NCBI GenBank assembly: GCA_963717505.1
Contig: OY970342.1
Location: forward strand, 672,001 to 736,000
DNA from: Candidatus Eiseniibacteriota bacterium
GTDB lineage: Bacteria > Eisenbacteria > RBG-16-71-46
DNA length: 64,000 nt
Direction: 5' to 3'
This document shows, in pieces, positions 1-14,939 of the stretch. The position numbers and the translations under genes are program-made. Position 1 is the first letter of the stretch. The number at the start of each line of letters is the position of its first letter. Below the pieces are notes generated by a model that was not told the origin of the DNA, searched no databases, and saw only the letters and a program-made list of their open reading frames with translations.

Positions 1-614
1 GCGCCGGCGATGCCCATCGCCGGGATCGGACCCCAGCCGTAGATCAGCAACGGGTCGAGCACGGCGTTGAGCGACACAGCGAACAGATCCACGAGCAATG
101 GCGTTCGCGTGTCCCCCGCGGCGCGCATGATCGTCTCGCAGGTGAACGAGGCCATGAGGATCGGCGAGCCGGCGAGCACGATCGACAGGTACTGGCCACC
201 GAGTTCGACGACCTGAGCGTCGCCGCCGAGCCACCCGTAGATCGGACGCGCGAAGAACAGGCCGGCGACCGTGCCGATCAGTCCCATGAGTACTGCGACC
301 CGCAGTCCCAGCCAGGCTGCGAGCCCCGCGCGCCGGCGATCGCCGGCGCCGAGCAACTGGCTCACATAGGCCGAGACGCCGAGCCCGAAAACGTCGTGGA
401 GCGAGATGACCAGCCACATCACGAACACCGACGTGGTCACGGCGGCGGTGGCTTCGACCCCGAGCCCGCGCACCCACAGCGCGTCGACCCACTGGTAGGC
501 GGTGCGCAGCAGGAACGAGAAGAAGATCGGGATCGCGAGGCGCAGGAGTTCTGGGCCGATCGGCCCGGTGACGCCGCGGGGCGGATCGGCAGTTCGCGGT
601 GTGGCGTCGGTCAA
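1..614 (-). CDS. MATE family efflux transporter/flippase (5' part; runs off window edge)
   Basis: Manual translation from TTG at 614 (TTGA overlap with the upstream stop) gives ...GPIGPELLRLAIPIFFSFLLRTAYQWVDALWVRGLGVEATAAV... and later MRAAGDTRTPLLV, both typical MATE motifs. Not in the ORF track because it is truncated. Confidence 0.85.
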   Translation of the reverse strand, partial: MTDATPRTADPPRGVTGPIGPELLRLAIPIFFSFLLRTAYQWVDALWVRGLGVEATAAVTTSVFVMWLVISLHDVFGLGVSAYVSQLLGAGDRRRAGLAAWLGLRVAVLMGLIGTVAGLFFARPIYGWLGGDAQVVELGGQYLSIVLAGSPILMASFTCETIMRAAGDTRTPLLVDLFAVSLNAVLDPLLIYGWGPIPAMGIAG

Positions 615-1240
615 CGCTTGAATCCGGGCTCGTCCGACGGCGTCGGCAGCGCCGGCCAGGGCGGCCGATCCATGGCTCCGCCCTCGATGCCCCACGGCTC
701 GCGATCCGAAGGCAGGGGTTCCATCAGGGACTCGGGCGGCTCCGGAGGCTCGATCCCGCGCTCGACCAGACTCAAGTGGAGCCGCGAGATCACGCGCTCG
801 AGATCGAGAACGCGTCCGGTCAGCTCGTGGATGCGCAACGCGAACGAGCGCACCATGGCCGCGGCGAACTCGGGGTGCTCCTGCACGGCGTCCCACACGT
901 CCCCTTGCAGCACGTTGAGCACGTGGGAATGCTCGACCGCGATGAGGGAATACTGGTGAGGCTCACCTTCGCGCAGCCAGAGTTCGCCGAACGCCATCCC
1001 GGCGCGCATGACCCGAACCACCGCCTTGCCGCGTCGCACCTGGATCAATCCATCGACCACCAGGAACGCACCGCGGTCGAGGTCGCCCTCTCGCGCCAGT
1101 TCGTCACCGATTTCACAGTGGATTTCGCGCGCGCGCGCGGCGAGGCCCGCCAGGGCTTCGGTCGGGATGTTCGAGAAGACCGGAATGCTCTTCATGAACG
1201 CGGTCTTTTCGATCAGGGTCAGAGTTTCTTCGGAGATCAG
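611..1240 (-). CDS. Cyclic nucleotide-binding domain protein (no HTH)
   Basis: LTLIEKTAFMKSIPVFS...REGD...FLVVDG.IQV...GMAFGE is a CAP/cNMP beta-roll. Start is uncertain (CTG 1240, ATC 1237, GTG 1270 or ATG 1195); GGAGG at 1248-1244. Confidence 0.8.
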   Translation of the reverse strand: MISEETLTLIEKTAFMKSIPVFSNIPTEALAGLAARAREIHCEIGDELAREGDLDRGAFLVVDGLIQVRRGKAVVRVMRAGMAFGELWLREGEPHQYSLIAVEHSHVLNVLQGDVWDAVQEHPEFAAAMVRSFALRIHELTGRVLDLERVISRLHLSLVERGIEPPEPPESLMEPLPSDREPWGIEGGAMDRPPWPALPTPSDEPGFKR

Positions 1241-3954
1241 GCACCTCCCGCGAGCGCGGCGCGCGCCCACAGCGCGGTCTCGCGCACGTAGGGTTCGCGC
1301 GCGCCGAGGTTGCGATCGACCTGTGCAGCCAGCTCGCGATCGCGCTGCGATCCGGCGACGTACAGCGCGCAGGTCCGGAGCCAGGGGTCGTCGCCTTCGA
1401 TCAGCGCCGCGAGCGAATCGCGCGGGCTCAGGAAGTGGAAGCCGTGCCGGTGGGCCGCCAGGCGCATCCGGGCATCGTCACCTGATTCGTCGACCAGCGG
1501 CAACACCAGCGCGGCATGGTCGGGCGCGATCGCGTTTTCGACATATTCGAGAGCATGGCCCCGGGCGCGCGGATCCAGGCTGATGACGCCGCGATAGGTG
1601 GCCAGGATTTCGTCCTGGCGGTAGAGCAGCCCGAGTCGCCGGAAGACACGGTTGATCGCCTGGTCCATCCGTTCGTTTAGAACAATGCAGAGCAGCCTTT
1701 CGGCGCTCCGACTCCCACCGATCGGACAGCTGCGATAGTTCACCAATGCGAACAGGTAGCTGCGCGCATCCCACGCCATGTCTTCGGTGACCTGATCGCG
1801 CGGGAAGCGGACCGCCCGGTTGCCCTCGCGGATCCGATTCAGGCCCTTGAGCACGCGATAGCCGAGCCGAACGTCGCCGCGCTCCCGAAAGCGCAAGAGC
1901 GCCTGGGCGGCCTGTTCGCTGCCGATGTCGGCGAGCACCCGCGGCAAGGCGCGCCGGATCTCGAGATCGACGCTCGCGTCCGTGAGGTAGTCGCCGAGGG
2001 TTCCCGCGATGCGATCACCGAACGCGGCCAGCCCGGCGCGCGCCGCTTCGCGCGTGCTGCCGTCGGCGAGCATCTCGATCATGCGGGGCACCAGGACTCG
2101 GCGTCCGTGGCGGCCCGCGCTGCGCAATGCTTCCCGGCGAACCTTCGGCGACGGATCACCGACCAGCGCGCTCTCGAGGTCGTCGAAGCCGTCGTCCGAC
2201 GCCCGGTGTCCGATCGCCTTGGCGATCGAGGCCCGCTCCTCGACGTCCCCCTCATGGAGCCTGCGCTCGACGATCGACCGCACCAGCGCCACCTCGACCG
2301 GACCCGCGACCTCGATCATGCAGGCGAGCGCGCTCCGTCGGATTCGCGGATCCGGACTCTCGAGGTAGGGCCGGGCACTCTCGACCATCGAACCGCCCTG
2401 GAGCAGGCAATGAGTCCGCAGGGCGGCGATGCGAACCTCGGCGTCGTCGTCGGCGAGCAGACGCTCGACCGCCTCCCGCACCTCGGGAGGGGAATCTGAC
2501 CGCACGAACGCGAGCGCCCGGGCGCGCACCTCGGCGGCAGAATGAGCCAGGAGTTCCGGCATGTAGCGATCCAGCTCCTCCGGAGCATTGTCCGCCAGCA
2601 TTTCGATCCCATGCAGAACGACGCGCTCGTGGGGGCTCGCCAGCAGGCGACCCATCTCGTCGAGAATCTTGGCTTCGCGCAGCGATACCGTCGTAGCGTG
2701 TGGATCGAGGGTCATGCGGCGCAGATTGCGCCCCAGCTCACGGGCGTAGCCGCGCCGAACACCAACCCACGCCGTCACCCAGACGGCCACCAACACCACC
2801 ACCAGACCGGCGATGGTGCGCGTGTCGGTGCCCATCATGGCGCCGGAGACGATGATCAAGGCGCCGGCCAGAGCGTCGCCCAGACGCTGGAGCCCGACGT
2901 CGATTCGCGAGCGCACGGCGCGCCGGATCTCGGGAGCGAGCGGAAAGTAGAACAAGTCGGTCGCCGATCGGTTCAGGGAATTCCGCAACACCTGATCCCA
3001 CAATCGCGCGGTCACCGAGGTCACGAATCCCGGGAACGCCAGGATCGCAGCCGCGCCGAGACCCAGACCCGCCGGCAGGATCGCGGCCGACCACGTGGCT
3101 CCGATTCGGCCCAGGGACCAACGGGTGACGAACAGCTGCAGGATGAGTGCTGCGAGATTGGTGGCGGTGTGGAACAGGCCGAGGAATTCCGCGAGCGCAG
3201 TCGAGGTCACCAGCCGGCGTTGAATCTCGACCTTGAACTGGAATTCGACCAGGGTCGTGACCAGCACCGAACACAGAGCAGCGATCGCGAGCCAACGCAC
3301 GTAGGACAGCCGCAATGGATTCGGCGTCGGTCCGGTCAGCGGCGCGTCGACATGCTGGACTTCGGCGCGACGCGTGGCGATCCGCAAATGGAGCGCCCCG
3401 CCGGCGAGCAACAGGCCGGCCAGCGCGATCAGCGCCGGAATGCCCAGGGTGGCGGTCACCGGCACCGCCACCAGGCCGGCGACCAGTCCGCCCATGATTC
3501 CGCAGGCGCCGACGAACGCGAACGAGCGTTTGGCCTCGCGCGGGTGCGACAGCGCCTGGGCTGCGATCCAGAATTGCGACAGCAGGATCAGCCCGTAAAC
3601 GTTGACCCAGACGTAGAACACGACCAGCGGCCAAGTCGCTCCGAAACCCCCGACTAGGCTGAACGCGGCCAGCGAGCCAGCTGCGATCCACATGGCGATT
3701 TCGAGCGGCCGCCACGCGGTCAGCGAGCGGGTGCCGCGTTCGAAGGCGATCGCGACGAACGAGGTCACTACGCCGACGCCGAGATAGACGAAGGGCAATA
3801 CGGTGGCGGGCAGATTCGCCAGAAACAGCGCGTCGCGCGCGGTCTTGGCCAGGGTGTACGAGGCCAGGAGCGCGAATAGAAGACCCCCGAGGGTCAGGGC
3901 GCGGCGGGCTTCCTCGGGCTCGAGGCGAAGCAGTCGTGCGACGAGAGGGATCAT
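1237..3954 (-). CDS. Npt1/Npt2 (NTT, ATP/ADP translocase-like MFS) transporter fused to HEAT repeats
   Basis: About 12 TM segments in the N-terminal half with KTARDALFL, SQFW, REAKR.F and LRNSLNRS motifs. The C-terminal half has HEAT-like repeats (LLADDDAEVRIAAL, LVGDPSPKVRREAL). Confidence 0.85.
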   Translation of the reverse strand: MIPLVARLLRLEPEEARRALTLGGLLFALLASYTLAKTARDALFLANLPATVLPFVYLGVGVVTSFVAIAFERGTRSLTAWRPLEIAMWIAAGSLAAFSLVGGFGATWPLVVFYVWVNVYGLILLSQFWIAAQALSHPREAKRSFAFVGACGIMGGLVAGLVAVPVTATLGIPALIALAGLLLAGGALHLRIATRRAEVQHVDAPLTGPTPNPLRLSYVRWLAIAALCSVLVTTLVEFQFKVEIQRRLVTSTALAEFLGLFHTATNLAALILQLFVTRWSLGRIGATWSAAILPAGLGLGAAAILAFPGFVTSVTARLWDQVLRNSLNRSATDLFYFPLAPEIRRAVRSRIDVGLQRLGDALAGALIIVSGAMMGTDTRTIAGLVVVLVAVWVTAWVGVRRGYARELGRNLRRMTLDPHATTVSLREAKILDEMGRLLASPHERVVLHGIEMLADNAPEELDRYMPELLAHSAAEVRARALAFVRSDSPPEVREAVERLLADDDAEVRIAALRTHCLLQGGSMVESARPYLESPDPRIRRSALACMIEVAGPVEVALVRSIVERRLHEGDVEERASIAKAIGHRASDDGFDDLESALVGDPSPKVRREALRSAGRHGRRVLVPRMIEMLADGSTREAARAGLAAFGDRIAGTLGDYLTDASVDLEIRRALPRVLADIGSEQAAQALLRFRERGDVRLGYRVLKGLNRIREGNRAVRFPRDQVTEDMAWDARSYLFALVNYRSCPIGGSRSAERLLCIVLNERMDQAINRVFRRLGLLYRQDEILATYRGVISLDPRARGHALEYVENAIAPDHAALVLPLVDESGDDARMRLAAHRHGFHFLSPRDSLAALIEGDDPWLRTCALYVAGSQRDRELAAQVDRNLGAREPYVRETALWARAALAGGA

Positions 3955-4032
3955 CGTGACTCCGAGAGGTCCCGGAGCCTAGCACAGGCACGTTTGACCG
4001 GCCGGCGGAACGCATGAATAGTCCCGGGTCTC

Positions 4033-5433
4033 ATGCGCTCCCTCGCGCAGTGTCTCTTGGTGATGCTGGTTCTGTCGTGTGCGGTCGCGCGTCCCATCGC
4101 CGCCCAGCCGTCTGCCGACTCTGCGGCGGCCGCGGCCCGATCGTCGCTGGCGCCGACCAGCGCGCCTCCCTGGAATCCACCTGCGGCGGTTCCCCGCTGG
4201 GAACCCTGGGAAGCTGCACTCCAGTTCCCCGGTCGCGTCGTGTCGCTCCCTTTGAGCGGGCTCGGCTGGATGGGCGAGCAGACCCTGGGGTACCTCGAAG
4301 AGTCGCAGCTGGTCGGGAAGGCCCTCGGGTTCCTCGCGGTCACGCAGTTGTACGGCGCCTACGTCGCGCCCGCCTCCCTGGGCGATCGCACGGGCACCGG
4401 CCTCGAGCTGCGCTGGATTCCGCCCTTTCTCAAGGACCGCGTGCTCCTGGAGCTGAGCGGCAGCACACGCCAGTACAACCGCGAGCGCGTGGCCGTGAAT
4501 TGGGGGCCGCTGCGGGCGATCTACGGATCGGAATGGCGATCGCGCGACCTGTTCTACGGCACCGGGATCGACGCTTCGATCGACGGCAAGTCGGCCTACG
4601 CGCTGCGCACACAGTCGATTCGGGTGGCGCTGGTTCACCCACACCACATCGCCAACGATGCGCTTCGAGTCGCCGAGGTCGCGGCGGTCTATCCCAGTCT
4701 GCTGCCGCCGAAGCATCCGATCCGGACCCAGTTCGCGGTGTGGGCCGGACCCCGATATGAATTCATGACCGATGGCCGCGACGCCAAGCTCGAATCGTTC
4801 GAAGTGCTGCATCCGGCGGTGGCCGCCGGGACTCTGCGGCAGGCGGTCGAGCACTTCACCTGGGGCGGCCGCATGCTGTTCGACCGCCGCGTCGGCTCTC
4901 CGCATTGGACTCACGGCTGGAGGCTGCGGCTCGATGGCCAACGCTTCGACCGTTCGATCGAGGCACTCGCGCTCAAGAACAACAGCACGAATGCGAAGCC
5001 CTTCACCCAATTGTCGGCTCAGGCGGAGATCGGAACGTCATGGGGACGCGATCCGCGCACGGTGCGACTCTTGGCCCGGATCATGGATCAGACCCTCGAC
5101 GACGGCGGGGGAACGTACTTGTTCTCCGACCTGCCGTGGCTCGGGGGGAGCGATTACCTGCGGGGCTACGAAACCGGCCGCTTCCGCGACATCGACATGG
5201 TCGCCGGCCGGGCCTCGTACATCTTCCCGATCGGCAAGAGCCTCGAGTTCGACCTCCATGCCGATGTCGGCGGCGTCTTCCCCGAGATGGAGGCCGCCCG
5301 CATGGACCGTCTCGTGAACTCCTACGGCACGGTGCTGCGCGTCCGCGGGGACCGATCGCTGATCGGAAACGTCGGTTTCGAATGGAGTCGAGAACAGACC
5401 CGATTCCGCTTCGGATTTGGAGCCGAGCAATGA
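4033..5433 (+). CDS. Omp85 (BamA/TamA-like) outer membrane beta-barrel, no obvious POTRA domains
   Basis: Signal peptide, amphipathic beta-strands, loop-6 motif LGGSDYLRGYETGRFRD and terminal strand FRFGFG. Confidence 0.75.
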   Translation: MRSLAQCLLVMLVLSCAVARPIAAQPSADSAAAAARSSLAPTSAPPWNPPAAVPRWEPWEAALQFPGRVVSLPLSGLGWMGEQTLGYLEESQLVGKALGFLAVTQLYGAYVAPASLGDRTGTGLELRWIPPFLKDRVLLELSGSTRQYNRERVAVNWGPLRAIYGSEWRSRDLFYGTGIDASIDGKSAYALRTQSIRVALVHPHHIANDALRVAEVAAVYPSLLPPKHPIRTQFAVWAGPRYEFMTDGRDAKLESFEVLHPAVAAGTLRQAVEHFTWGGRMLFDRRVGSPHWTHGWRLRLDGQRFDRSIEALALKNNSTNAKPFTQLSAQAEIGTSWGRDPRTVRLLARIMDQTLDDGGGTYLFSDLPWLGGSDYLRGYETGRFRDIDMVAGRASYIFPIGKSLEFDLHADVGGVFPEMEAARMDRLVNSYGTVLRVRGDRSLIGNVGFEWSREQTRFRFGFGAEQ

Positions 5434-6800
5434 GGCGGCGCATCGCAGGCCTGGTGATCGCGGTGGGCGCGACCATGGTATTGGCGGCGCCCCAGGCTTC
5501 CGGCCAGACCGCCGACAGCACGCACGCCGCACCCCAACCACCCGCGCCGCACGGCATCTCGTACGGCTACGACGCGCTCGAACAGAGCGTCATCCGTCCG
5601 ATGGCGAGGTTCCTCGATCTCGGCTTGCTGGCTCGCCGGCTGGGGGCGGGTCGCCGCGAGGCGGCCAATGTCGACGAGAGCGACCAGGTGCGCCTGCCGA
5701 CCACCTGGTGGACGCCGAGGGTCGGACACCAGACGGTGAGCGTCGAGGACATGCTGCTCGGGCCGGGAGCGGGCACGGGACCGGCGCCCGGTCCGTGGAC
5801 TCTGGTGCGCGCCAAGACCGAGGGCGTCTCCAAAGGCTTCCAGATCAAGGATGCGAAGGGCGCGCGCTTTGCGATCAAGTTCGATCCGCCCCACCACCCG
5901 GAACTGGGGACCTCTGCCGACGTGGTTTGCGCTCGGCTCTACTGGGCTGCGGGCTACAACGTGCCCGACAACACGATCGCGTTCTTCCGGCGCGAGGACC
6001 TGAAGATCGCCGAAGGCGCCACGTACGAGGTCCTCGGAATCAAGCACACGATCGACGAAATGTTCCTCACGAAGTTGCTCCTGGACGTGCCGAAGATGCC
6101 CGACGGCAGCTATCGGGTGGTTGCGAGCCGATACCTCTCCGGTAAGCCGCTCAGCGAATGGCGCTACGACGGCCGGCGCAAGGACGACCCCGAAGATCTG
6201 ATCCCACACGAGCATCGTCGCGAGGTCCGCGGGCTGTGGCTGATCCACGCCTGGCTCAACAACACCGACGGCAGCGCCCGCAACACGCTCGACATGTGGG
6301 TCACCGAAGGCGGGCGCTCGTTCGTCCGCCACCACGTCATCGACTTCAGCGGCTGCCTCGGTTCGGCTTCGATCGCGGCGCAGTCGCCGAGCGGCGGACA
6401 CGAATACCTGCTCGACTACGGGGCTTCGGCGCGTGCATTGGCCACGCTCGGCTTGGTTCCGGCGGGGTGGGAACACGCCGAGGATTCCGGCATTCCAAGC
6501 GTCGGATTCATCGAGTCCGAGTACTTCGAGCCCGGCGGCTGGAAACCATTCCTGCCGAATCCCGCGTTCGACGTGGCCACCGACCGCGATGCGCGCTGGG
6601 GCGCCCGGATCGTTGCCGGATTCTCGGACGAGCACATTCGCGCCGCGGTCGAGATGGGCAGGTACTCCGACCCGCGTGCGGCCGAGTACCTGACCCGCAT
6701 CCTGATCGAGCGTCGCGACAAGATCGCCGCGCGTTGGCTGACACCCGAGGAGGCCGTGGCGGCCCGAGCGGCGTCGGCAGGCGGCAATGGCGCGCGCTGA
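5430..6800 (+). CDS. Secreted protein with predicted atypical (PI3K/HipA-like) kinase fold
   Basis: ATG 5430 overlaps the upstream TGA. Sec signal MRRRIAGLVIAVGATMVLAAPQASG. Motifs in kinase order: KTEGVS (G-loop), FAIKF (beta3 Lys), WLNNTDGSARN (DxxxxN catalytic loop), VIDFSG (DFG-like). Confidence 0.65.
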   Translation: MRRRIAGLVIAVGATMVLAAPQASGQTADSTHAAPQPPAPHGISYGYDALEQSVIRPMARFLDLGLLARRLGAGRREAANVDESDQVRLPTTWWTPRVGHQTVSVEDMLLGPGAGTGPAPGPWTLVRAKTEGVSKGFQIKDAKGARFAIKFDPPHHPELGTSADVVCARLYWAAGYNVPDNTIAFFRREDLKIAEGATYEVLGIKHTIDEMFLTKLLLDVPKMPDGSYRVVASRYLSGKPLSEWRYDGRRKDDPEDLIPHEHRREVRGLWLIHAWLNNTDGSARNTLDMWVTEGGRSFVRHHVIDFSGCLGSASIAAQSPSGGHEYLLDYGASARALATLGLVPAGWEHAEDSGIPSVGFIESEYFEPGGWKPFLPNPAFDVATDRDARWGARIVAGFSDEHIRAAVEMGRYSDPRAAEYLTRILIERRDKIAARWLTPEEAVAARAASAGGNGAR

Positions 6801-8031
6801 CCGCGCGCGCCGCGCCGCGCCGCTGATCGCCCTGTCTCTGCTGGCTCTCGGCTGCGCACCGGTCGGCGCCTACAAGGGCATCGTTCCGGTTCCCGGGGCG
6901 CCGCAGCCGACCGGCGGCCTGCCCGGCGGCCCGGACTCGACGGTGGTGCTGGTCTATGGCGACAGCCGCCCGGGGCAAATGGTGCTGTCCCGTTCCTATG
7001 GAGCTTCGGTGGTCCGCTCGTCGCTGCGCTCGCGCAACCCCGGAGAATGGGTGCGCGGGCTGATCCACGTGCCGATCGCATTCCTCCAGCTCGTGTTTCC
7101 GACCCTCGACGGCGTGCGCGACATCTGGTCCACGTTCGGCTCCAAGCGCTACACCGGCGGCAATCAATTGGGCGTGCTACGCGCAATCTCGGCCGAGGTC
7201 GACGCCGAACTGATCGTGCACACCGGCGACATCGTCGAAGACGGCCGGCGGGGCGGACAGTGGAACGACTTCGTGCGGCTGTACGCGCCGCTACGCGAGT
7301 CGGTGAACTTCATCGCCACCCCGGGGAATCACGAGCGGACCTGGCACCCGGAGGCTCAGAAGAACTGGGAACGGGTGATGGGCGCCAGCAGCGGACCGGG
7401 GCGATTGTGGCACGTCGTCGACATTGGGCGTGCGCGCTTCGTTCTACTGGATTCCAACCCACTCACCGACGTTCGCGACCGATACCCCTCCGATATCGAG
7501 GAGGCTTTGTCCGAGGCGGAGTTGGCGTGGGCGGATTCGGTGCTCGCCGCTCCCTTCGCCTACAAGTTCGTGGTGCTGCACCACCCGCTGGCGACCTCCG
7601 GTCACTACCTCGAGGATTGGACGATGGATGACGCGCGCGGCCGCGCGAGTCGGCGCGGTCGACTGATCGAGATGTGCCACCGCCACGGCGTCACCGCCGT
7701 GCTGGTCGGCCACGAGCACCTGTACGAGCGCACGTGGATCACCGATCGCGAGGGCCGGCGGGGTTTCTGGCACGTGACGACCGGGGGCGGCGGCTCGCCG
7801 CTCAATCGCGTCCCCGACGAACGGCGCCGCAAGGCGTTGGCGCAGACCCTGCCCGATGGCTCGCGCATCACGTTTCCCGCGGAGCCCGAAGCGGTGTATC
7901 ACTTCTGCCGCATGGTGGTGCCCGGTGGCGACGTCTCGGATTCGCCGCCGGTTCTGGTTCGGGTCTACCGGGTGGAAGGCAATCACACGACCAACATGAT
8001 CGATTCGTTCGACCTGGCCCGAACGCCATGA
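6787..8031 (+). CDS. Calcineurin-like metallophosphoesterase (purple acid phosphatase-like), lipoprotein
   Basis: Lipobox LALGC; metal-binding motifs YGDSR, HTGDIV, PGNHE, LHHP, GHEH. Confidence 0.85.
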   Translation: MARADRARRAAPLIALSLLALGCAPVGAYKGIVPVPGAPQPTGGLPGGPDSTVVLVYGDSRPGQMVLSRSYGASVVRSSLRSRNPGEWVRGLIHVPIAFLQLVFPTLDGVRDIWSTFGSKRYTGGNQLGVLRAISAEVDAELIVHTGDIVEDGRRGGQWNDFVRLYAPLRESVNFIATPGNHERTWHPEAQKNWERVMGASSGPGRLWHVVDIGRARFVLLDSNPLTDVRDRYPSDIEEALSEAELAWADSVLAAPFAYKFVVLHHPLATSGHYLEDWTMDDARGRASRRGRLIEMCHRHGVTAVLVGHEHLYERTWITDREGRRGFWHVTTGGGGSPLNRVPDERRRKALAQTLPDGSRITFPAEPEAVYHFCRMVVPGGDVSDSPPVLVRVYRVEGNHTTNMIDSFDLARTP

Positions 8032-8086
8032 CGATCGGCTGCCTAAGAACGCCGACCGCCCACGCCGCTCACCCCAGCCACCGCCC

Positions 8087-9466
8087 ATGACCGCCGACCG
8101 CCCGCCACCTGACGCCCCGGACACCCAACGCGGACCGCTCGAACGATTGCTGTCGGTGTTCGCCGAAGTCCGTCAGGGCGAAGGCGGCACGGCGCTCTTG
8201 CTCGCGCTCAACGTCTTCCTGCTCCTGATGTGCTACTACCTCATTCGCCCCGTGCGCGAAGCGCTGATTCTCCAGGTCCCGAGCGGTGCCGAGATCAAGA
8301 GCTACTTGTCCGCCGGGCAGGTCTTCCTGCTGTTGTTCCTGATTCCCGCCTACAGCGCCTTCGCGAATCGGGTCGATCGCATTCGCCTGATCACCGGCGT
8401 CACGCTGATCTTCATCGCGTGCCTGGTCGTTTTCTACGGCCTGGCCCAGCTCCAGCTCACCTACCTCGGGGTCGCGTTCTTTCTCTGGATCGGGATCTTC
8501 AACGTCATGATCACCGCCCAGTTCTGGGCGTACGCCAACGACGTGTACACCGAGGAGCAGGGGAAGCGCCTGTTCGCGATCGTCGCGTTCGGCGCCACCC
8601 TGGGAGCGGTGTTCGGCTCGGGAATCGCGGCCGCACTGATCCGTCCGTTTGGGTTGAATCAGCTGATGCTGGTATCGGCCGGAGTGCTCGGCGTCAGTCT
8701 GGCGCTGACGCGGATCATCGACGCGCGGCTGGGCGCGATCGCGGCAGCCACGCGCGCCACGCGTGCCACACAGGAACCCATGTCGAGCACCGGCGGCTTC
8801 CAGCTCGTACTCCGCGATCGCTACCTGCTCTACATCGGCTTGCTGGTGCTCGCGATCAATCTCGTGAACTCGAACGGCGAGTACATCCTGGGTAAGACCC
8901 TCTCGATGCTTGCCGATCGCAACATCGCGGCCGGCGTGCACGGCGCGCTCGACCCGGGCGAGTACAAGAGGCAGTTCATCGGTGGTTTCTACGCGACCTT
9001 CCTGGTCTGGGTCAGCGTGGTGACCGCACTGGTCCAGTTGTTCCTGGTGTCGCGGGTGATCAAGTGGTTCGGGGTTCGCGTCGCTTTGTTCGTGATGCCC
9101 CTGGTCGCCCTCGGGGGTTACGCCATGCTCGCGATCACTCCGATCCTGGGTCTGATCCGCACGGTCAAGGTCCTCGAGAACTCGCTCGACTACTCGCTGC
9201 AGAACACCGCGCGCCATGCCTTGTGGCTGCCGACCTCGCGCGACGCCAAATACAAGGCCAAGGCGGCGACCGACACCTTCTTCTGGCGCGCCGGCGACGT
9301 GCTGTCGGCGCTGATCGTGTTCATCGGGGCGCAAATCGGGCTACACCCGCAGTCGTTCGCGGCGATCAACGTCGTGCTGGTGCTGGGCTGGCTCGCGGTG
9401 TTGGTCGCGCTGGCCAGGCGTCACCGCGCGCTCGCCGAAGTGCGAGCCGCCGACGCCGCTCGCTAG
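8087..9466 (+). CDS. Npt1/Npt2 (NTT/AAA family) nucleotide transporter, stand-alone
   Basis: About 12 TM segments; YYLIRPVREALIL, QFWAYAND.Y..EQGKRLF, ENSLDYSLQNTAR, KYKAKAATDTFFWRAGD. Confidence 0.85.
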   Translation: MTADRPPPDAPDTQRGPLERLLSVFAEVRQGEGGTALLLALNVFLLLMCYYLIRPVREALILQVPSGAEIKSYLSAGQVFLLLFLIPAYSAFANRVDRIRLITGVTLIFIACLVVFYGLAQLQLTYLGVAFFLWIGIFNVMITAQFWAYANDVYTEEQGKRLFAIVAFGATLGAVFGSGIAAALIRPFGLNQLMLVSAGVLGVSLALTRIIDARLGAIAAATRATRATQEPMSSTGGFQLVLRDRYLLYIGLLVLAINLVNSNGEYILGKTLSMLADRNIAAGVHGALDPGEYKRQFIGGFYATFLVWVSVVTALVQLFLVSRVIKWFGVRVALFVMPLVALGGYAMLAITPILGLIRTVKVLENSLDYSLQNTARHALWLPTSRDAKYKAKAATDTFFWRAGDVLSALIVFIGAQIGLHPQSFAAINVVLVLGWLAVLVALARRHRALAEVRAADAAR

Positions 9467-10611
9467 GGGTTCCCTGCCGTTCGAATGAGTCGCGCGAGGC
9501 CGAAGCGCTCGGGGACCGGGCCGGGAGCTCCGCCGACCATTCCCGCCACTATCTCCCCAATCGCGCTGGCGAACTTGAAGCCGTGGCCCGAGCAGGCGCT
9601 GACCAGGATCGCGCGTGGCTCCACCGGGTGCCGATCGATGATGAAGTCCTCGTCGGCGGTATTGGTGTAAAGGCAGGTCAGGGCTCGGATCGGCGCGCCG
9701 GCGGCCGGGGGAATGTGGCGGCGGAGCGGCGCGAGGATTCGCTCGACCTCGTCGCCTTCGACCTCGCGGCGAACGCGATCGGGATCGATGCGCTCGCCCT
9801 GATGATGGAGCGCAGCTTTGACGGCGCCGTCCAGCGCCGGGAAGGCGTAGAAGAATCGGTCGGGCTCGTATTGCCAGATGGTGATCGGGCAGCGCGCCGG
9901 CTCGAGCAGGGCCGGATCTCGAGCGGGCGCGAACCAAGCCTGAACGACGCGCTCGACCGAGAGCGGCAGATCGAAGCCGTTCAGCAAGCCGCGAAGCCAG
10001 GCCCCGGCCGTGAGGACGACCTGGCCGGCGTGCACCTCACCCCCGCTCGTCTCGACGACGATGCCTCCGGCAGTCGCCCGCCAGCCGGTGACCGCGGTAT
10101 TCATCCGAATCTCGGCGCCAGCGAACGCGGCCTGGTCGAGATGGGCGGCAACGCAGCGTTCGGGCAGGAGCACTCCGGCGCGCGGCTCCCAGACCCCGGC
10201 CATGTCGTCGCCCGGCGCGAACGCCGGGAACCGGCGCCGGATCTCGGTCGCCGACAATAGTTCGTGCCGCAGACCATGGAGGCGAGCGCTGCGCAGAGCG
10301 CCTGCGACCAGGACGCCTCCCGGTGGCCCGATCATCACGCCGCCGGTCTCGATCATGAGCGTCTGCCCGGCGTCGCGCTCGAGCGCCGACCACAGTTCGT
10401 AGGCCCGCTGAACCAGGGGGACGTAGCAGGGATCCTCGAAGTACGCCTCGCGGATGATCCGGCTCCCGCCGTGCGACGAGCCGTGCGTGTGCGGGCTGGT
10501 CCAGCGCTCGAGTCCGACCACCCGGTATCCGTTGCGCGCCAGGTGGCAGAGCGCGGAACTCCCGGCGGCGCCCAGCCCGACGACCGCGACGTCGAACGCC
10601 GAGCGCGTCAT
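9463..10611 (-). CDS. solA: N-methyl-L-tryptophan/sarcosine oxidase (monomeric, FAD)
   Basis: GLGAAG Rossmann motif, HGSSHGGSRIIR, CLYTNT and CSGHGFKF. Confidence 0.88.
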   Translation of the reverse strand: MTRSAFDVAVVGLGAAGSSALCHLARNGYRVVGLERWTSPHTHGSSHGGSRIIREAYFEDPCYVPLVQRAYELWSALERDAGQTLMIETGGVMIGPPGGVLVAGALRSARLHGLRHELLSATEIRRRFPAFAPGDDMAGVWEPRAGVLLPERCVAAHLDQAAFAGAEIRMNTAVTGWRATAGGIVVETSGGEVHAGQVVLTAGAWLRGLLNGFDLPLSVERVVQAWFAPARDPALLEPARCPITIWQYEPDRFFYAFPALDGAVKAALHHQGERIDPDRVRREVEGDEVERILAPLRRHIPPAAGAPIRALTCLYTNTADEDFIIDRHPVEPRAILVSACSGHGFKFASAIGEIVAGMVGGAPGPVPERFGLARLIRTAGNP

Positions 10612-11390
10612 CGCCCTTCATCCGCTGGCGCTTCGGCCAGCGCCGCGTCGGCCCATGCCTCGATCGTCTCCAGGTCGGGCACCGGCTCGGGCGGCGTGCG
10701 GCGCAGCGCCACGTAGGCCAGGTGGCCGGAGTGAACATCCATGAGCGCGTGCATCAGGATGCCGGGATAGAGCGAGCCCGAGATGAAGTAGACGCCCGCC
10801 AGGAAAGCGCCCACCAGGGTGGTCAACAGGATCCCGCGCGGTCCCTGGTAGGTGTGGCCGATGCCGAAAACCACCGCCGAGGCCCCGAGCGCGATCCACG
10901 GACCGAGCCAGTAGGTCAGGTACCAGATCATGAACCCGCGGTAGAGGATCTCCTCGCAGATCCCGGCGGTGATCGACAGGGCGTAGAAGCGCCGGAGCTC
11001 TCGCGGCTCGCGCGGGAGCATCGGCTCGACGTGGCGCATGCGCTCGCGCACCTCGGCCAGGGCCTCGTCGTCGTCCAGGGCCTTGGTCCGCTGGCGCCAG
11101 ACCAGGACGAAGACGATGGCGATGCCGGCCGCCACGCCTGCGAGCCCGGTCGTGACCCTCGGCTCGAGGCCGATCTCCCGCGCGGTGCGTCCGGCGGCGA
11201 CCCACACCGCCGAGGTCAGGAGCACCAGCCCCCACTGAACCGCCATCGCCGTGGCGTACAGCGACATGCGGACGCGGGGGCGCTGGGCGAGGCTGGCCCG
11301 GAGTAGCCGCCGGTAGCCGAAGGTGGCGCCCCAAACGGGACCGAGGAGGATCAGAACTGCGGCGAGGACGTGATCGAGGATTCCGGGCAC
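10608..11390 (-). CDS. CPBP (CAAX/Rce1-like) intramembrane metalloprotease
   Basis: AGICEEILYRG, FGIGH and HALMD motifs; multiple TM helices. Confidence 0.88.
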   Translation of the reverse strand: MPGILDHVLAAVLILLGPVWGATFGYRRLLRASLAQRPRVRMSLYATAMAVQWGLVLLTSAVWVAAGRTAREIGLEPRVTTGLAGVAAGIAIVFVLVWRQRTKALDDDEALAEVRERMRHVEPMLPREPRELRRFYALSITAGICEEILYRGFMIWYLTYWLGPWIALGASAVVFGIGHTYQGPRGILLTTLVGAFLAGVYFISGSLYPGILMHALMDVHSGHLAYVALRRTPPEPVPDLETIEAWADAALAEAPADEGR

Positions 11391-11546
11391 GTCCGGATCC
11401 TACGAGATCCGGTCCCCGATCGACCACGCTGCGTTCTGCCGAGCGCGTGTGCGACATCGTGCATCCCGCGTCGCGAAATCGTCGGCGGGAAAGATCGTCG
11501 CAGACAGGTCTTTGCCGCCACGAAATCGTCTGTTAACGTTTTACCC

Positions 11547-11972
11547 ATGTCGATTCGCCCGTACAAGATCGTATTCCTCTGCACCCACAACGCAGGGCGT
11601 TCACAGATGGCCAGGATCTTCTTCAACCAGATGGCCGACCCGAGCCTGGTGCGCGCGGTTTCTTGCGGCACCGAGCCGGCCAACCGGGTTCACCCCGAGG
11701 TCGTGGACGTGATGCGCGAGGTTGGAGTCGACCTCGCCCCCGATCGTCCGCGCCTGCTCATGGACGAAATCGTGGCGAATGCCACGCTGGTCGTCACCAT
11801 GGGCTGCGGCGACCAGTGCCCGGTGGTTCCGGGCGCCGAGCGCCTCGAGTGGGATCTTCCGGACCCCAAGGGTCAGTCGCTGGATCGAGTCCGCTGGATC
11901 CGCGATCAAGTGCGCGAGCAGGTGCGCGACCTGATCCAGGCCAACTTCTGGGGTCGTCAAGCCGTCGCGTAG
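11547..11972 (+). CDS. arsC: Arsenate reductase / LMW protein-tyrosine-phosphatase family
   Basis: P-loop CTHNAGRS, VTMGCGDQCP and W.LPDP motifs. Confidence 0.85.
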   Translation: MSIRPYKIVFLCTHNAGRSQMARIFFNQMADPSLVRAVSCGTEPANRVHPEVVDVMREVGVDLAPDRPRLLMDEIVANATLVVTMGCGDQCPVVPGAERLEWDLPDPKGQSLDRVRWIRDQVREQVRDLIQANFWGRQAVA

Positions 11973-12005
11973 TCGGCTGCCGGGAAGCAAACAACCGAGG
12001 TCATC

Positions 12006-14939
12006 ATGGCGCTCGCAGGCCGCCAGTTCGTCCTCTGCTTCTCCCTTTTCTTTGCCGTCCCCGCTCACGCGATCGTGCGGCCGATCGACGCTCCGGAGGG
12101 TGAACTTCGGCCCGATCAGGCACGCGTCGTCCGCATCGCGAGCCCCTCCGCTGCGCCGGCCCTCGATGCGCGCCCCCCCTGGCGCGAGTTCCAGAGCCGA
12201 CACGGTGGGTGGAAGGCCCAATGGAACACGGTCACCAAGAGCCCGCATCGGGCCTGGGGGCCCTCCTTCCCGATCTCGGGCCCGGTGCGCGACGCCGCCA
12301 CGGTCGATGGAGCGCTACGCAGCTTCATCGCGGGGAACCCCGGCGTGTTCGGCACGCCGTCGCTCGAAGTCGCTGCCATCTACTCCGTAAACGGACTCTG
12401 GTACGCCCGCTATCGCCAGAAGATTCACGGTGTGCCGGTGCTGTTCTCCGACTGGGAGTTCCGGGTCTCCGAGTCCGGAAAGCTCATGATGTTCGGCGCC
12501 GATGCGCATGAGCCGAGCCGAGCCCCGCGCACCTCGCCGGTTCTGGTGCGCGCCGCCGCGCGCGAGCAGGCCCGCCGAGGGCTGGCTTACACACCCGGAA
12601 AAGGCACGATCGAAGACGGCGGCTTGTACTTGATGCCCTGGTCCACTGAGACCGGCGTCGAATACCGGCTCGTCTACGAGCAGCGAGTGGTGACCGAAGA
12701 CCCACCGGGAAACTGGATTGCGTTCGTCGACGCCGAAAACGGCGACGTGCTATTCCGCCAGAACCGCGTCCGGTACGTGATCTCGGGCCAGATCACCGGC
12801 GCCATTCACACCTTGCTGCCGACCGATCCGCTGACCACCGCCCCGTTCCGCGACCTGAGGATCTGGGTCGGACCGGACTCCGGCGTCACCAGCTCGCTCG
12901 GGAACTATTCGGTGCCCGCCACCGGCACGGTCAGCGTGCGCGACAGCCTGATCGGGCCGTTCTGCGACGTGAACAACAACCTGCCGTCGATCGCCGTGTT
13001 CAACACCACGGTTGGCAATCCCGCGACCGTCAACATCAATTGGACCGACGCCAACTCGCACGTCGCCGAACGCGACGCCTTCTACCACGTGAACCTGGTC
13101 CACAATTTCATCCGCACGCTCGATCCGGCGTTCACGCAGATCGACTATTCGATGCCGACTCGGGTCAACATCAACCTCAATTGCAATGCGTTCTGGAACG
13201 GCACCGGCGTCAACTTCTACGTCGCCGGCAGCGGCTGCCCGAACACCGCAACGATTCCCGACGTCGTCTATCACGAGTACGGGCACGGCATCAACGACAT
13301 GCTCTACATCCAGGCGGGCTCGTTTGGCGGAATGTTCAGCGGCGCTCTCCACGAAGGCATGGCCGACGTCAATGCCGCGTTCGTGCAGGACGACCCGAAC
13401 ATCGGCAAGGGCTTCACCGGCCCGGGCACGATCTTGAGGACCTGCGACAACACCCGGCGCTGGCCCGATGACGCCGGTGAGGCGCATACCTCGGGGCAAA
13501 TCATCTCGGGGGCGTTCTGGGACCTGCGTCAGGCGGTTGGGCTGACCGTGGCCAGCCGGCTCGCGCATTTCGCGCGCTACGGCATCCCGGACGATCCCCT
13601 CGACGATGGCGTCGCCATGAGCGAGTACTTCGTCGAAACCCTGATCGCGGACGACGACGATGCCAATCTGGGGAACGGCACGCCGCACTTCTCCGACATC
13701 GTGGCGTCGTTCAACGCGCACGGCATCGGCACGGGCTTCTTCGTCGAGTTCACGCACACGCCGCTCGCCGACAACACCAGCACCGGTAACTACCCGGTTA
13801 CCGCCTTGGTTCGCTACACCGGCCCGGTGGGCGCCCTCGACGCCTCCTCGCCCACGCTCTACTTCTCGGTGAATGGCTCCGCTTACGTACCCGCCGCCAT
13901 GACGCCGACCGGCAACCCCGACGAGTTCTCCGCGGTCATCCCCGGCCAGCCGGCGGCGATCGTCTCCTACTACCTGACCGCGGCCGACGTCTACGGCGCG
14001 ACCAACACGCACCCGCCGGTGGCTCCGTCGCGGGAAACGTTCACGTTCCTGGCCGGCCCGGCGACCACGGTGTTCCAGCAGACGATGGAAGCCAATCCGG
14101 GATGGACCGTGGGCGATGCGACCGACAACGCGACCTCGGGAATCTGGGAGCGCGGCAATCCGAACGGTACGCTGGTCGACGGTGTCAACGTCCAGCCCGA
14201 GGACGATCACACGCCGTTTTCGGGCACGGTGTGCTGGTTCACCGGGCAGCACCCGCTCGGCGAGGCGAACCCGGGCCTGAGCGACGTCGATGGCGGCCGG
14301 ACGACACTGACCTCGAACGTCTTCGACGCAGTGACCGCGATCAACTACCCGGTGATCGAGTACTACCGCTGGTACACGAACCAGCTCGGCGGCGCCCCGT
14401 CGTCGGACCTTTGGCGCACGTACGTTTCGAACGACGCCGGCGCGAGCTGGGCGCTGGTCGAGAACACGCTCGATTCGAAGAACGCCTGGCAGCGAGTGCT
14501 GTTCTTCATTCACGACTACGTCACGCCGACCAACGCCATGCGGCTGCGATTCGTTGCCAGCGACTCGGCAGCGGGTTCATTGGTCGAGGCGGGAGTCGAT
14601 GATGTCCGGCTGCTGACCTATCCGTTGTCGCTGTCGATCGGTGGCGACGCGGGAGCCAGTCGCGAAGTCCTCTTGGCGCCGGCGTCGCCGAACCCGATGC
14701 GCTCGCACGCTTCGTTCGCGTTCACCCTGCCGTCGGCGGGCCATGCGTCGCTGCGGGTGTACGACATCCACGGTCGCGCCGTGCGCACGCTGCACCAGGG
14801 CCATCTCGATGCCGGTCCGCACCTCCGGGAGTGGAACGGGCTCGACGACCGCGGGCGGCGCGTGCCGAGCGGGCCCTACTTCGTGAGGCTCGAGCACGGG
14901 CTTCGCCAGGCCATGCGCAAGGTCGTGCGCGTCGAGTAG
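12006..14939 (+). CDS. Secreted M4/M36-like zinc metalloprotease with propeptide and C-terminal FlgD-Ig/T9SS-like domain
   Basis: Signal peptide; NAFWNG, HEYGH, ALHEGMAD and GEAH motifs; C-terminal PNP...LRVYDIHGRAVRTL...GPYFVRL. Confidence 0.85.
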   Translation: MALAGRQFVLCFSLFFAVPAHAIVRPIDAPEGELRPDQARVVRIASPSAAPALDARPPWREFQSRHGGWKAQWNTVTKSPHRAWGPSFPISGPVRDAATVDGALRSFIAGNPGVFGTPSLEVAAIYSVNGLWYARYRQKIHGVPVLFSDWEFRVSESGKLMMFGADAHEPSRAPRTSPVLVRAAAREQARRGLAYTPGKGTIEDGGLYLMPWSTETGVEYRLVYEQRVVTEDPPGNWIAFVDAENGDVLFRQNRVRYVISGQITGAIHTLLPTDPLTTAPFRDLRIWVGPDSGVTSSLGNYSVPATGTVSVRDSLIGPFCDVNNNLPSIAVFNTTVGNPATVNINWTDANSHVAERDAFYHVNLVHNFIRTLDPAFTQIDYSMPTRVNINLNCNAFWNGTGVNFYVAGSGCPNTATIPDVVYHEYGHGINDMLYIQAGSFGGMFSGALHEGMADVNAAFVQDDPNIGKGFTGPGTILRTCDNTRRWPDDAGEAHTSGQIISGAFWDLRQAVGLTVASRLAHFARYGIPDDPLDDGVAMSEYFVETLIADDDDANLGNGTPHFSDIVASFNAHGIGTGFFVEFTHTPLADNTSTGNYPVTALVRYTGPVGALDASSPTLYFSVNGSAYVPAAMTPTGNPDEFSAVIPGQPAAIVSYYLTAADVYGATNTHPPVAPSRETFTFLAGPATTVFQQTMEANPGWTVGDATDNATSGIWERGNPNGTLVDGVNVQPEDDHTPFSGTVCWFTGQHPLGEANPGLSDVDGGRTTLTSNVFDAVTAINYPVIEYYRWYTNQLGGAPSSDLWRTYVSNDAGASWALVENTLDSKNAWQRVLFFIHDYVTPTNAMRLRFVASDSAAGSLVEAGVDDVRLLTYPLSLSIGGDAGASREVLLAPASPNPMRSHASFAFTLPSAGHASLRVYDIHGRAVRTLHQGHLDAGPHLREWNGLDDRGRRVPSGPYFVRLEHGLRQAMRKVVRVE

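Follow-up and report, generated by a model that had tools for sequence, protein, structure and literature searches.

An exported atypical kinase paired with a POTRA-less Omp85 barrel and linked to NTT-family carriers: a possible envelope phosphorylation module in Candidatus Eiseniibacteriota and other bacteria

We analysed a stretch of 64,000 nt from a Candidatus Eiseniibacteriota bacterium (assembly GCA_963717505.1, contig OY970342.1, positions 672,001 to 736,000; hereafter the window), which begins with a divergent gene cluster (Table 1). At the core of this cluster, an exported atypical kinase (KIN, 5430-6800) is arranged co-transcriptionally with a dedicated outer-membrane barrel of the Omp85 superfamily that has no POTRA domain (4033-5433). 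The pairing of KIN and barrel is near-obligate across the genomes studied, and the association of KIN with two NTT-family carriers, a cyclic-nucleotide (cNMP)-binding protein and interchangeable exported phosphoesterases is strong, though not absolute. We read the locus, with a confidence that falls a little short of even, as a conserved envelope phosphorylation module in which the carriers would supply the nucleotide.

At the sequence level, KIN had no match in Pfam or NCBIfam at E<=0.01 and none in the PDB at E<=10, no Pfam or NCBIfam scan placed it in a named kinase family (PF06702 of Fam20C, HipA, PI3_PI4_kinase or CotH), and its Atlas similarity to clusters of named kinase families was only 0.83-0.84. 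A word-index search returned 1153 homologues, of which the named ones were all "hypothetical" except for one UniRef entry with the truncated label "HipA domain-c...", and an exhaustive search returned 2596 clusters at 50% identity. KIN is a separate, unnamed kinase-fold family. AlphaFold2, given an alignment of 74 family members whose identity to the query ranges over 32-84%, yielded a model (predicted local distance difference test [pLDDT] 93.3, predicted template modelling score [pTM] 0.90) in which the signal peptide is followed by a family-specific N-terminal part (residues 38-100), helical and packed against the kinase, and by a kinase core (~101-441). With this model, Foldseek gave seven matches at E<=0.001, which were Fam20C, the Fam20C-Fam20A complex and CtkA, with Fam20C at the top. 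The exhaustive structural search with VIA returned 14 chains at Z>=8, every one an atypical kinase, over ~101-441; they included CtkA (Z 13.6), Hydra Fam20 (13.2), DrFam20C1 (12.8), PI4KII-alpha (12.8), CotH (12.0), actin-fragmin kinase (11.2), HipA (10.5), HipT (10.3) and MavQ (9.7). The model displays the bilobal kinase fold of the branch formed by Fam20, CotH, CtkA-HipA and PI4KII.

Positions G132, K150, H260, R264, R267, D280 and D305 were invariant in the 74 sequences, and G136, F137, N285 and D288 were conserved in at least 90% of them. In the AlphaFold2 model the glycine-rich loop precedes the strand 146-150, K150 lies within FAIKF, and the Asp..Asn loop, NNTDGSARN (D280, N285), is followed by a DFG-like IDFSG (D305), so that the full kinase catalytic set (glycine-rich loop, strand-3 lysine, Asp..Asn loop and metal-binding Asp) is present; judging by their position in the model, these residues would have the corresponding catalytic roles. 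Because the set is complete and invariant, we favour an active enzyme. Pseudokinases share the fold and Fam20A was among the matches of KIN, so we also considered that the protein might be a catalytically silent nucleotide sensor or a scaffold for the barrel, with the carriers linked for regulation and not for co-substrate supply, as the signalling flavour of the HEAT and cNMP-binding partners could suggest. We judge this very unlikely, since invariance of K150, D280 and D305, and conservation of N285 and the glycine-rich loop at 90% or more in sequences down to 32% identity, is the pattern of an active enzyme, and the recurrent pairing with phosphatases fits turnover of phosphate esters.

An N-terminal hydrophobic segment was found in 69 of the 74 KIN relatives, with a lipobox-like motif in about 29 by a heuristic criterion, and export appears to be a trait of the whole family. 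A first-pass annotation of this DNA, made from the sequence alone, had proposed that the product of 5430-6800 is exported and has a kinase fold. Both features held: a signal peptide is present, the pLDDT 93.3 model has only atypical kinases as matches at Z>=8, and the predicted catalytic set is complete, so that the protein looks neither cytoplasmic nor devoid of a kinase fold. The Fam20 kinases of animals (Fam20B and the Golgi casein kinase Fam20C) have the same atypical fold and also act outside the cytosol behind a signal sequence, but KIN is ~8-11% identical to them, has no PF06702 match, is bacterial and is paired with an Omp85 protein. CtkA of Helicobacter pylori and the toxin kinases HipA and HipT are the best or near-best structural matches; however, KIN has neither a HipA match in Pfam or NCBIfam nor an antitoxin partner, and HipA is cytoplasmic whereas the KIN family bears export signals. 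The lipid kinases PI4KII-alpha and MavQ and the spore-coat kinases CotH belong to the same fold group, without KIN being a member of these families at the sequence level. Most of the distant KIN relatives have 550-580 residues and carry a C-terminal extension of ~110 residues that has no Pfam match and is missing in the window protein.

The partner of KIN scored 21.5 bits with PF01103, just under the 24-bit cut-off, a level that 10 of 14 relatives from other loci reached. Its AlphaFold2 model (pLDDT 84.7) consists of a signal helix, a disordered stretch, helices at 58-106 and a 16-strand barrel at 109-462. The best 18 VIA matches were all barrels of the Omp85 superfamily, among them Sam50 (Z 25.5), TamA (24.7), BamA (24.3), FhaC (19.1) and CdiB (18.7), and the next barrel type reached only 11.9; the Omp85 identity that had been suggested for 4033-5433 is borne out by the 16-strand model and by these exclusively Omp85-type top matches. 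A POTRA domain was found neither by Pfam nor in the model, where the helices 58-106 alone precede the barrel, and because of this the protein, as modelled, falls outside the BamA, TamA and TpsB classes. The locus shares with TpsA/TpsB, TamA/TamB and BamA the 16-strand Omp85 barrel (Z 19-25.5), here encoded beside a partner exported to the periplasm. It differs from them in that the barrel has a helical N-terminal segment in place of POTRA domains and the partner kinase has no TPS or TamB-like domain in Pfam.

To follow the arrangement in other bacteria we used a scan of one genome per species, which gave 79 related loci, and counted linkage by tblastn with the window proteins plus an iterated hidden Markov model (HMM) of the barrel (84 kinase copies in 78 loci). 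The labels of the 79 loci were mainly Candidatus Eisenbacteria and Myxococcota (Kofleriaceae, Haliangiales, Bradymonadia), followed by Gemmatimonadota, Acidobacteriota, Fibrobacteraceae and Krumholzibacteriia, and a few contigs were labelled Verrucomicrobiia, Rokuibacteriota or Limnocylindria. Of the 73 kinase copies preceded by 1300 nt or more of sequence, 68 had a barrel gene that ended at the kinase start; among the exceptions were the second copies of two tandem pairs (L051, L077) and a broken barrel (L025). This adjacency holds under the labels Eisenbacteria, Myxococcota, Gemmatimonadota, Acidobacteriota, Fibrobacterota and Krumholzibacteriia, with about eight phylum labels overall. Four contigs labelled Limnocylindria, Verrucomicrobiia or Rokuibacteriota (L004, L008, L011, L023) carried the module at 54-64% identity and in the Eisenbacteria gene order, which suggests that they were mis-binned or recently transferred; the Chloroflexota bin with its Omp85 barrel looks suspect. 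The KIN family is expanded in Myxococcota: one 9.8-Mb Haliangiales genome (G201, that of L039) had six kinase copies, and in two Kofleriaceae loci (L051, 1249-4595; L077, 3191-8037) a tandem kinase-kinase duplication stands behind a single barrel gene. In one Eisenbacteria genome (L043, 8900-11200) the barrel and kinase genes were both split over three frames while the downstream phosphoesterase and NTT2 genes seemed intact; either this copy of the module is decaying or the assembly is at fault there.

The abutting of barrel and kinase genes in 68 of 73 copies is also the layout of a transporter and its cargo. The barrel could work in the manner of two-partner secretion and export the kinase to the surface or the medium, where it would act on other cells or on external substrates with their ATP, the NTT carriers being separate and importing, for instance, released nucleotides. 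FhaC and CdiB are among the structural matches of the barrel (Z 19.1 and 18.7), whose N-terminal helices 58-106 resemble the plug helix of TpsB proteins; CtkA, the top VIA match of KIN, is titled a secreted kinase in the PDB, and the family is common in Myxococcota, up to the six copies in one genome mentioned above. Nevertheless, we consider this explanation unlikely. The barrel, besides having no POTRA domain by Pfam or in the model, is nearer to Sam50, TamA and BamA (Z 24-25.5) than to TpsB proteins, and the kinase carries no TPS or other Pfam domain and is strongly conserved, unlike typical effectors. Many KIN relatives look like anchored lipoproteins and some are fused to an inner-membrane PAP2 domain, with which release is hard to reconcile, and the tight co-occurrence of the carriers would be left unexplained.

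The two carriers both passed the gathering cut-off of 21 bits for PF03219 (TLC; TC 2.A.12), with 41.2 bits for NTT-HEAT and 55.2 bits for the short carrier NTT2, which showed distant similarity to the solved NTTs 9j3n (E 2.5e-7) and 9j3j. The conserved in-frame TAG flagged within matches to NTT2 is simply the regular stop codon of the gene. The larger carrier falls in the NTT-HEAT clade in which a protein with a domain for cyclic-nucleotide binding (cNBD) may accompany the carrier: it has the NTT domain and C-terminal HEAT repeats, and the cNMP-binding gene follows directly, as it does in many related loci; the cNMP-binding protein is presumably a cytoplasmic regulator. The pairing of NTT-HEAT with cNBD is known from the survey of Major, Embley and Williams in 2017, which called its function unknown (PMC5381601). 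What that survey describes for this clade, in the part available to us, matches the window in the HEAT-fused NTT, the cNMP-binding gene immediately downstream and the free-living bacterial host, and mentions neither an exported kinase nor an Omp85 barrel nor a further carrier of the short type.

In the window's own genome of 4.16 Mb the kinase gene is single, and two of the three TLC genes flank it. The third encodes a shorter NTT-HEAT paralogue of 698 residues (L087, 5851-7947, minus strand; G000:C1, ~549.3-552.9 kb), directly followed, with stop/start overlap, by a Hanks-type Ser/Thr kinase of 530 residues (L087, 4262-5854, minus strand). Hanks kinase ORFs (open reading frames) were seen in 16 related loci; in L016, for instance, such an ORF stands directly behind a short NTT-HEAT. 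The short NTT-HEAT with its Hanks kinase may represent a second, cytoplasmic pairing of kinase and carrier.

One or both carriers stood near the kinase in 27 of the 41 copies with at least 6 kb on either side. We then tabulated co-occurrence in 201 genomes of the window's phylum, using thresholds of E<=1e-40 for NTT2 and E<=1e-50 for NTT-HEAT; the KIN and NTT2 tallies include one genome flagged as unpublished (G015, positive for KIN and NTT2), without which each count shifts by one. KIN was patchily distributed, being present in 100 genomes (one genus, for example, had it in 4 of 16 and another in 4 of 18), and NTT2 was present in 89. Both were found in 84 genomes, KIN only in 16, NTT2 only in five and neither in 96. 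In 67 of these 84 genomes a single contig carried both genes no more than 10 kb apart, with a median gap of 1450 nt; of the others, one pair was far apart and 16 were on different contigs of fragmented assemblies. NTT-HEAT was found in 64 of the 201 genomes, 60 of which have KIN. A second sample of 151 Myxococcota genomes, centred on the genome of L039 and counted by hand from tables, had KIN in 13 and NTT2 in 22 (both in 11, KIN only in two, NTT2 only in 11 and neither in 127), so that NTT2 occurred in 11 of 13 genomes with KIN versus 11 of 138 without it, and the genes were within 6 kb in eight of the 11 genomes with both. These counts place the arrangement far beyond chance. The genes proposed to belong together are linked in other genomes as well, KIN being accompanied by the Omp85 barrel, both NTT-type carriers and the cNMP-binding protein, with the metallophosphoesterase in part of the range.

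The exported phosphoesterase is the variable member. The calcineurin-like metallophosphoesterase of the window (MPE) has as its best solved relative 3zk4, a diphosphonucleotide phosphatase 1 of the purple-acid-phosphatase type (E 5.7e-6), and gave weak NCBIfam matches to cyclic-nucleotide phosphodiesterases. Counted by tblastn with the window protein, given that an iterated MPE HMM picked up alternative-frame ORFs of GC-rich DNA, MPE came immediately after KIN in 17 of the 25 close copies, those of at least 50% identity, and in none of the 43 distant ones. Six further loci, from other families of the phylum, had long open frames suspected to be PAP2 fusions; they were not, and five of the six showed the order kinase (37-39% identity), phosphoesterase, NTT2. 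Elsewhere a PAP2 domain occurs. KIN-PAP2 fusions of 731-790 residues made up six of the 120 best homologues and carry the PSGH and RxxxxxHxxxD motifs; reading the motifs and hydrophobic segments by eye, we place the kinase and the PAP2 active site of the fused forms on the same, outer face. A separate PAP2 gene comes straight after the kinase gene in two loci, L042 (Pfam 73.3 bits) and L058 (69.8 bits), and adjoins it on the opposite strand in L071 and L050. A metagenome scan with the PAP2 part of a fusion gave three short loci (1.3-9.3 kb), too short to show barrel or carrier context. The proposal of a kinase opposed by a phosphatase gains some support from this replacement of MPE by PAP2, fused or adjacent, in other lineages. 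The known route by which an envelope lipid is phosphorylated outside the cytoplasm is that of LpxT, a PAP2-family protein that acts on lipid A in the periplasm with undecaprenyl pyrophosphate as donor (PMC2229476). In the loci studied here PAP2 is an optional part of the module, either as a domain fused to the kinase or next to it; LpxT needs neither a kinase fold nor a nucleotide, in contrast to a module core made of a kinase-fold enzyme and nucleotide carriers.

The nature of MPE allows another explanation, namely a pathway in which the exported phosphoesterases act on nucleotides or organophosphates from outside, nucleotides enter through the NTT carriers, and KIN binds or converts nucleotides instead of phosphorylating an envelope target. 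Its best solved relative and its weak phosphodiesterase matches would fit such scavenging, NTT2-like carriers are found without the kinase, and the characterised NTTs import nucleotides (PMC5381601). Even so, a kinase whose catalytic set is invariant would have no clear role in scavenging and would still require an extracytoplasmic phosphate donor, and the phosphoesterase is the least conserved member (0 of 43 distant copies) while barrel, kinase and carriers persist. The barrel model, moreover, fits insertase and translocase barrels (Z 24-25) far better than porins (Z no higher than 11.9), and Omp85 barrels are not known as nutrient channels. We regard scavenging as quite unlikely.

Other hints as to the substrate come from the neighbourhood. 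Clustering the neighbour ORFs of the related loci without bias gave mostly antisense artefacts. In one Eisenbacteria subgroup (L005, L009, L015, L019, L021, L043) a DUF1206 membrane protein and a DAGK_cat/YegS-like lipid-kinase gene lie just upstream of the barrel, and five Kofleriaceae loci have MlaE/MlaD neighbours together with ABC-ATPase-like ORFs, the cluster of which extends to 12 loci. The DAGK_cat, MlaE/MlaD and Hanks neighbours are limited to lineages, and we take them as weak lipid hints that lie outside the module. The presence of lipid kinases among the structural matches of KIN fits the KIN-PAP2 fusions. The PAP2 and lipid-gene neighbours and the PI4KII and MavQ matches lean towards a lipid or lipid-linked substrate without establishing it, and an envelope lipid or lipid-linked glycan is our leading guess, a doubtful one that we would expect to fail more often than to hold.

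Kinase-fold enzymes require a nucleotide co-substrate, and the periplasm is held to lack ATP, so that envelope processes are attributed to energy relayed from the inner membrane or to high-energy donors, undecaprenyl pyrophosphate among them. In the secretory pathway, Fam20 kinases depend on ATP carried into the compartment. NTT carriers are known as the energy-stealing importers of intracellular parasites and of plastids, and those characterised are nucleotide antiporters whose direction is set by the gradients. In the envelope phosphorylation module that we favour, the barrel would bind or handle the kinase, whose place of action would be the periplasm or the outer membrane and whose co-substrate would be a nucleotide triphosphate, most likely ATP. 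Because an extracytoplasmic kinase needs such a co-substrate, NTT2 and NTT-HEAT would be the proteins that bring it across the inner membrane; under the gradients of a free-living cell, antiport would take cytoplasmic ATP out and periplasmic ADP (plus phosphate) in. The HEAT repeats and the adjacent cNMP-binding protein may gate the carrier from the cytoplasmic side, and the exported phosphoesterase, MPE here and PAP2 elsewhere, may reverse the phosphorylation or clear leftover nucleotide. The supply would differ from that of Fam20 in that the proposed carriers are TLC/NTT proteins and not the eukaryotic lumenal ATP carriers. The export of ATP by the carriers, which was the core of the first-pass annotation, is something that we infer from linkage only.

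Several observations weigh against this reading. The NTP/NDP exchanger model TIGR00769 scored 39.5 and 31.5 bits for the two carriers against a cut-off of 387.2, and because these scores are so far below it, homology does not settle what the carriers transport or in which direction; both are remote TLC members to which neither substrate nor direction can be transferred. Neither carrier was seen in 14 of the 41 loci that have 6 kb or more on each side, and 16 of the 100 KIN-positive genomes of the phylum had no NTT2 at E<=1e-40, 11 of these 16 belonging to one family with divergent kinases. Conversely, an NTT2-like carrier occurred without the kinase in 11 of the 22 carrier-positive Myxococcota genomes; these 11 loci had no KIN or Omp85 match and no kinase among 29 neighbouring ORFs, and the neighbours were heterogeneous (PilZ, a beta-lactamase family protein, one metallophosphoesterase, polysaccharide synthesis and others). 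The two-by-two tables overstate the coupling, because linked genes are co-inherited and related genomes are not independent; they show a module, not a probability. In addition, the closest solved relative of MPE cleaves nucleotides, which fits scavenging as well, and ATP exported to the periplasm could leak through porins.

The layout of the locus is summarized in Table 1. Genes were called from the ORF list together with Pfam and NCBIfam scans of the window, and as its GC content of 65-71% produces many spurious long ORFs, homology was trusted over ORF length. All seven genes of the first-pass annotation were recovered in place by these means, and the majority of the junctions overlap: by 34 nt between the cNMP-binding gene and the NTT-HEAT stop, by 4 nt between the barrel and kinase genes and by 14 nt between the kinase and phosphoesterase genes, with a gap of 55 nt between the MPE and NTT2 genes. 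The spacer between the arms would serve as a shared promoter region for both. No riboswitch was found in 1-12000, where Rfam at E<=1 gave only a chance snoRNA-like match outside the spacer. For 4033-9466 no RNA data set was listed as containing the sequence, and the best DNA data set shared 0.29 of its words.

Table 1. Genes and spacer of the divergent cluster at the start of the window.
Feature	Coordinates	Strand	Evidence
MATE efflux transporter, partial (extends past window start)	3..896	-	PF01554, E 2.9e-28
Cyclic-nucleotide-binding-domain protein, 219 aa as listed	611..1270	-	PF00027, 39.7 bits
NTT-HEAT, 905 aa: TLC/NTT carrier domain (~residues 1-430) and C-terminal HEAT repeats	1237..3954	-	TLC 41.2 bits, HEAT_2 61.3 bits
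Divergent intergenic spacer between the two arms, 78 nt	3955..4032	.	Coordinates
POTRA-less Omp85-superfamily outer-membrane barrel, 466 aa	4033..5433	+	PF01103, 21.5 bits (cut-off 24), and AlphaFold2/VIA structure
Exported atypical kinase-fold protein (KIN), 456 aa, unannotated family	5430..6800	+	Fold, signal peptide, conserved residues
Calcineurin-like metallophosphoesterase lipoprotein (MPE), 414 aa	6787..8031	+	PF00149, 56 bits (cut-off 21.5); lipobox LALGC in translation
NTT2, short TLC/NTT-family carrier (MFS-like), 459 aa	8087..9466	+	TLC 55.2 bits, MFS_1 35.2 bits

The MATE transporter had been counted as part of the system, which was not borne out: MATE-like matches occurred in five of the 79 related loci (L004, L006, L007, L018, L020), all of them close relatives. 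Convergent to the module lie a solA-like N-methyltryptophan oxidase (NF008425, 413 bits; 9463-10611, minus strand) and a CAAX/Rce1-like protease (10608-11390, minus strand). Both also stand behind the module in L007, L013 and L020; we rejected the two genes as module parts, as they are present with it in close relatives only and represent local synteny. Farther downstream (12006-14939, plus strand) lies the gene of a probable secreted protease of 977 residues, in which a weakly matching thermolysin-like M4 peptidase domain (23.2 bits) is combined with an FlgD Ig-like domain at the C terminus.

We found no description of the module in full-text searches on periplasmic ATP, extracytoplasmic phosphorylation, secreted kinases and NTT-HEAT, subscription-only papers and supplements being outside their reach, and we regard it as new in kind among the systems described in bacteria, with a mechanism that we infer. 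It is large and conserved among bacteria from soil and sediment, with 2596 clusters, a presence in about half of the sampled genomes of one phylum and representatives in several other phyla. In its widest form, which we put forward still more tentatively than the reading of this locus, the idea is that phosphorylation outside the cytoplasm proceeds in a Golgi-like manner in free-living diderm bacteria from many phyla, with ATP exported by NTT carriers, a dedicated kinase with its own Omp85 barrel and opposing phosphatases. If this is true, it would be the first bacterial counterpart of the secretory-pathway kinases with an ATP supply of its own, and it would overturn the working rule that there is no ATP-driven chemistry in the periplasm. 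It would also add a kinase family and a class of POTRA-less Omp85 partner, both of them new, show NTT-family carriers running in the export direction in free-living bacteria, and give a role to the widespread orphan NTT-HEAT(-cNBD) proteins that the 2017 survey left without a function.

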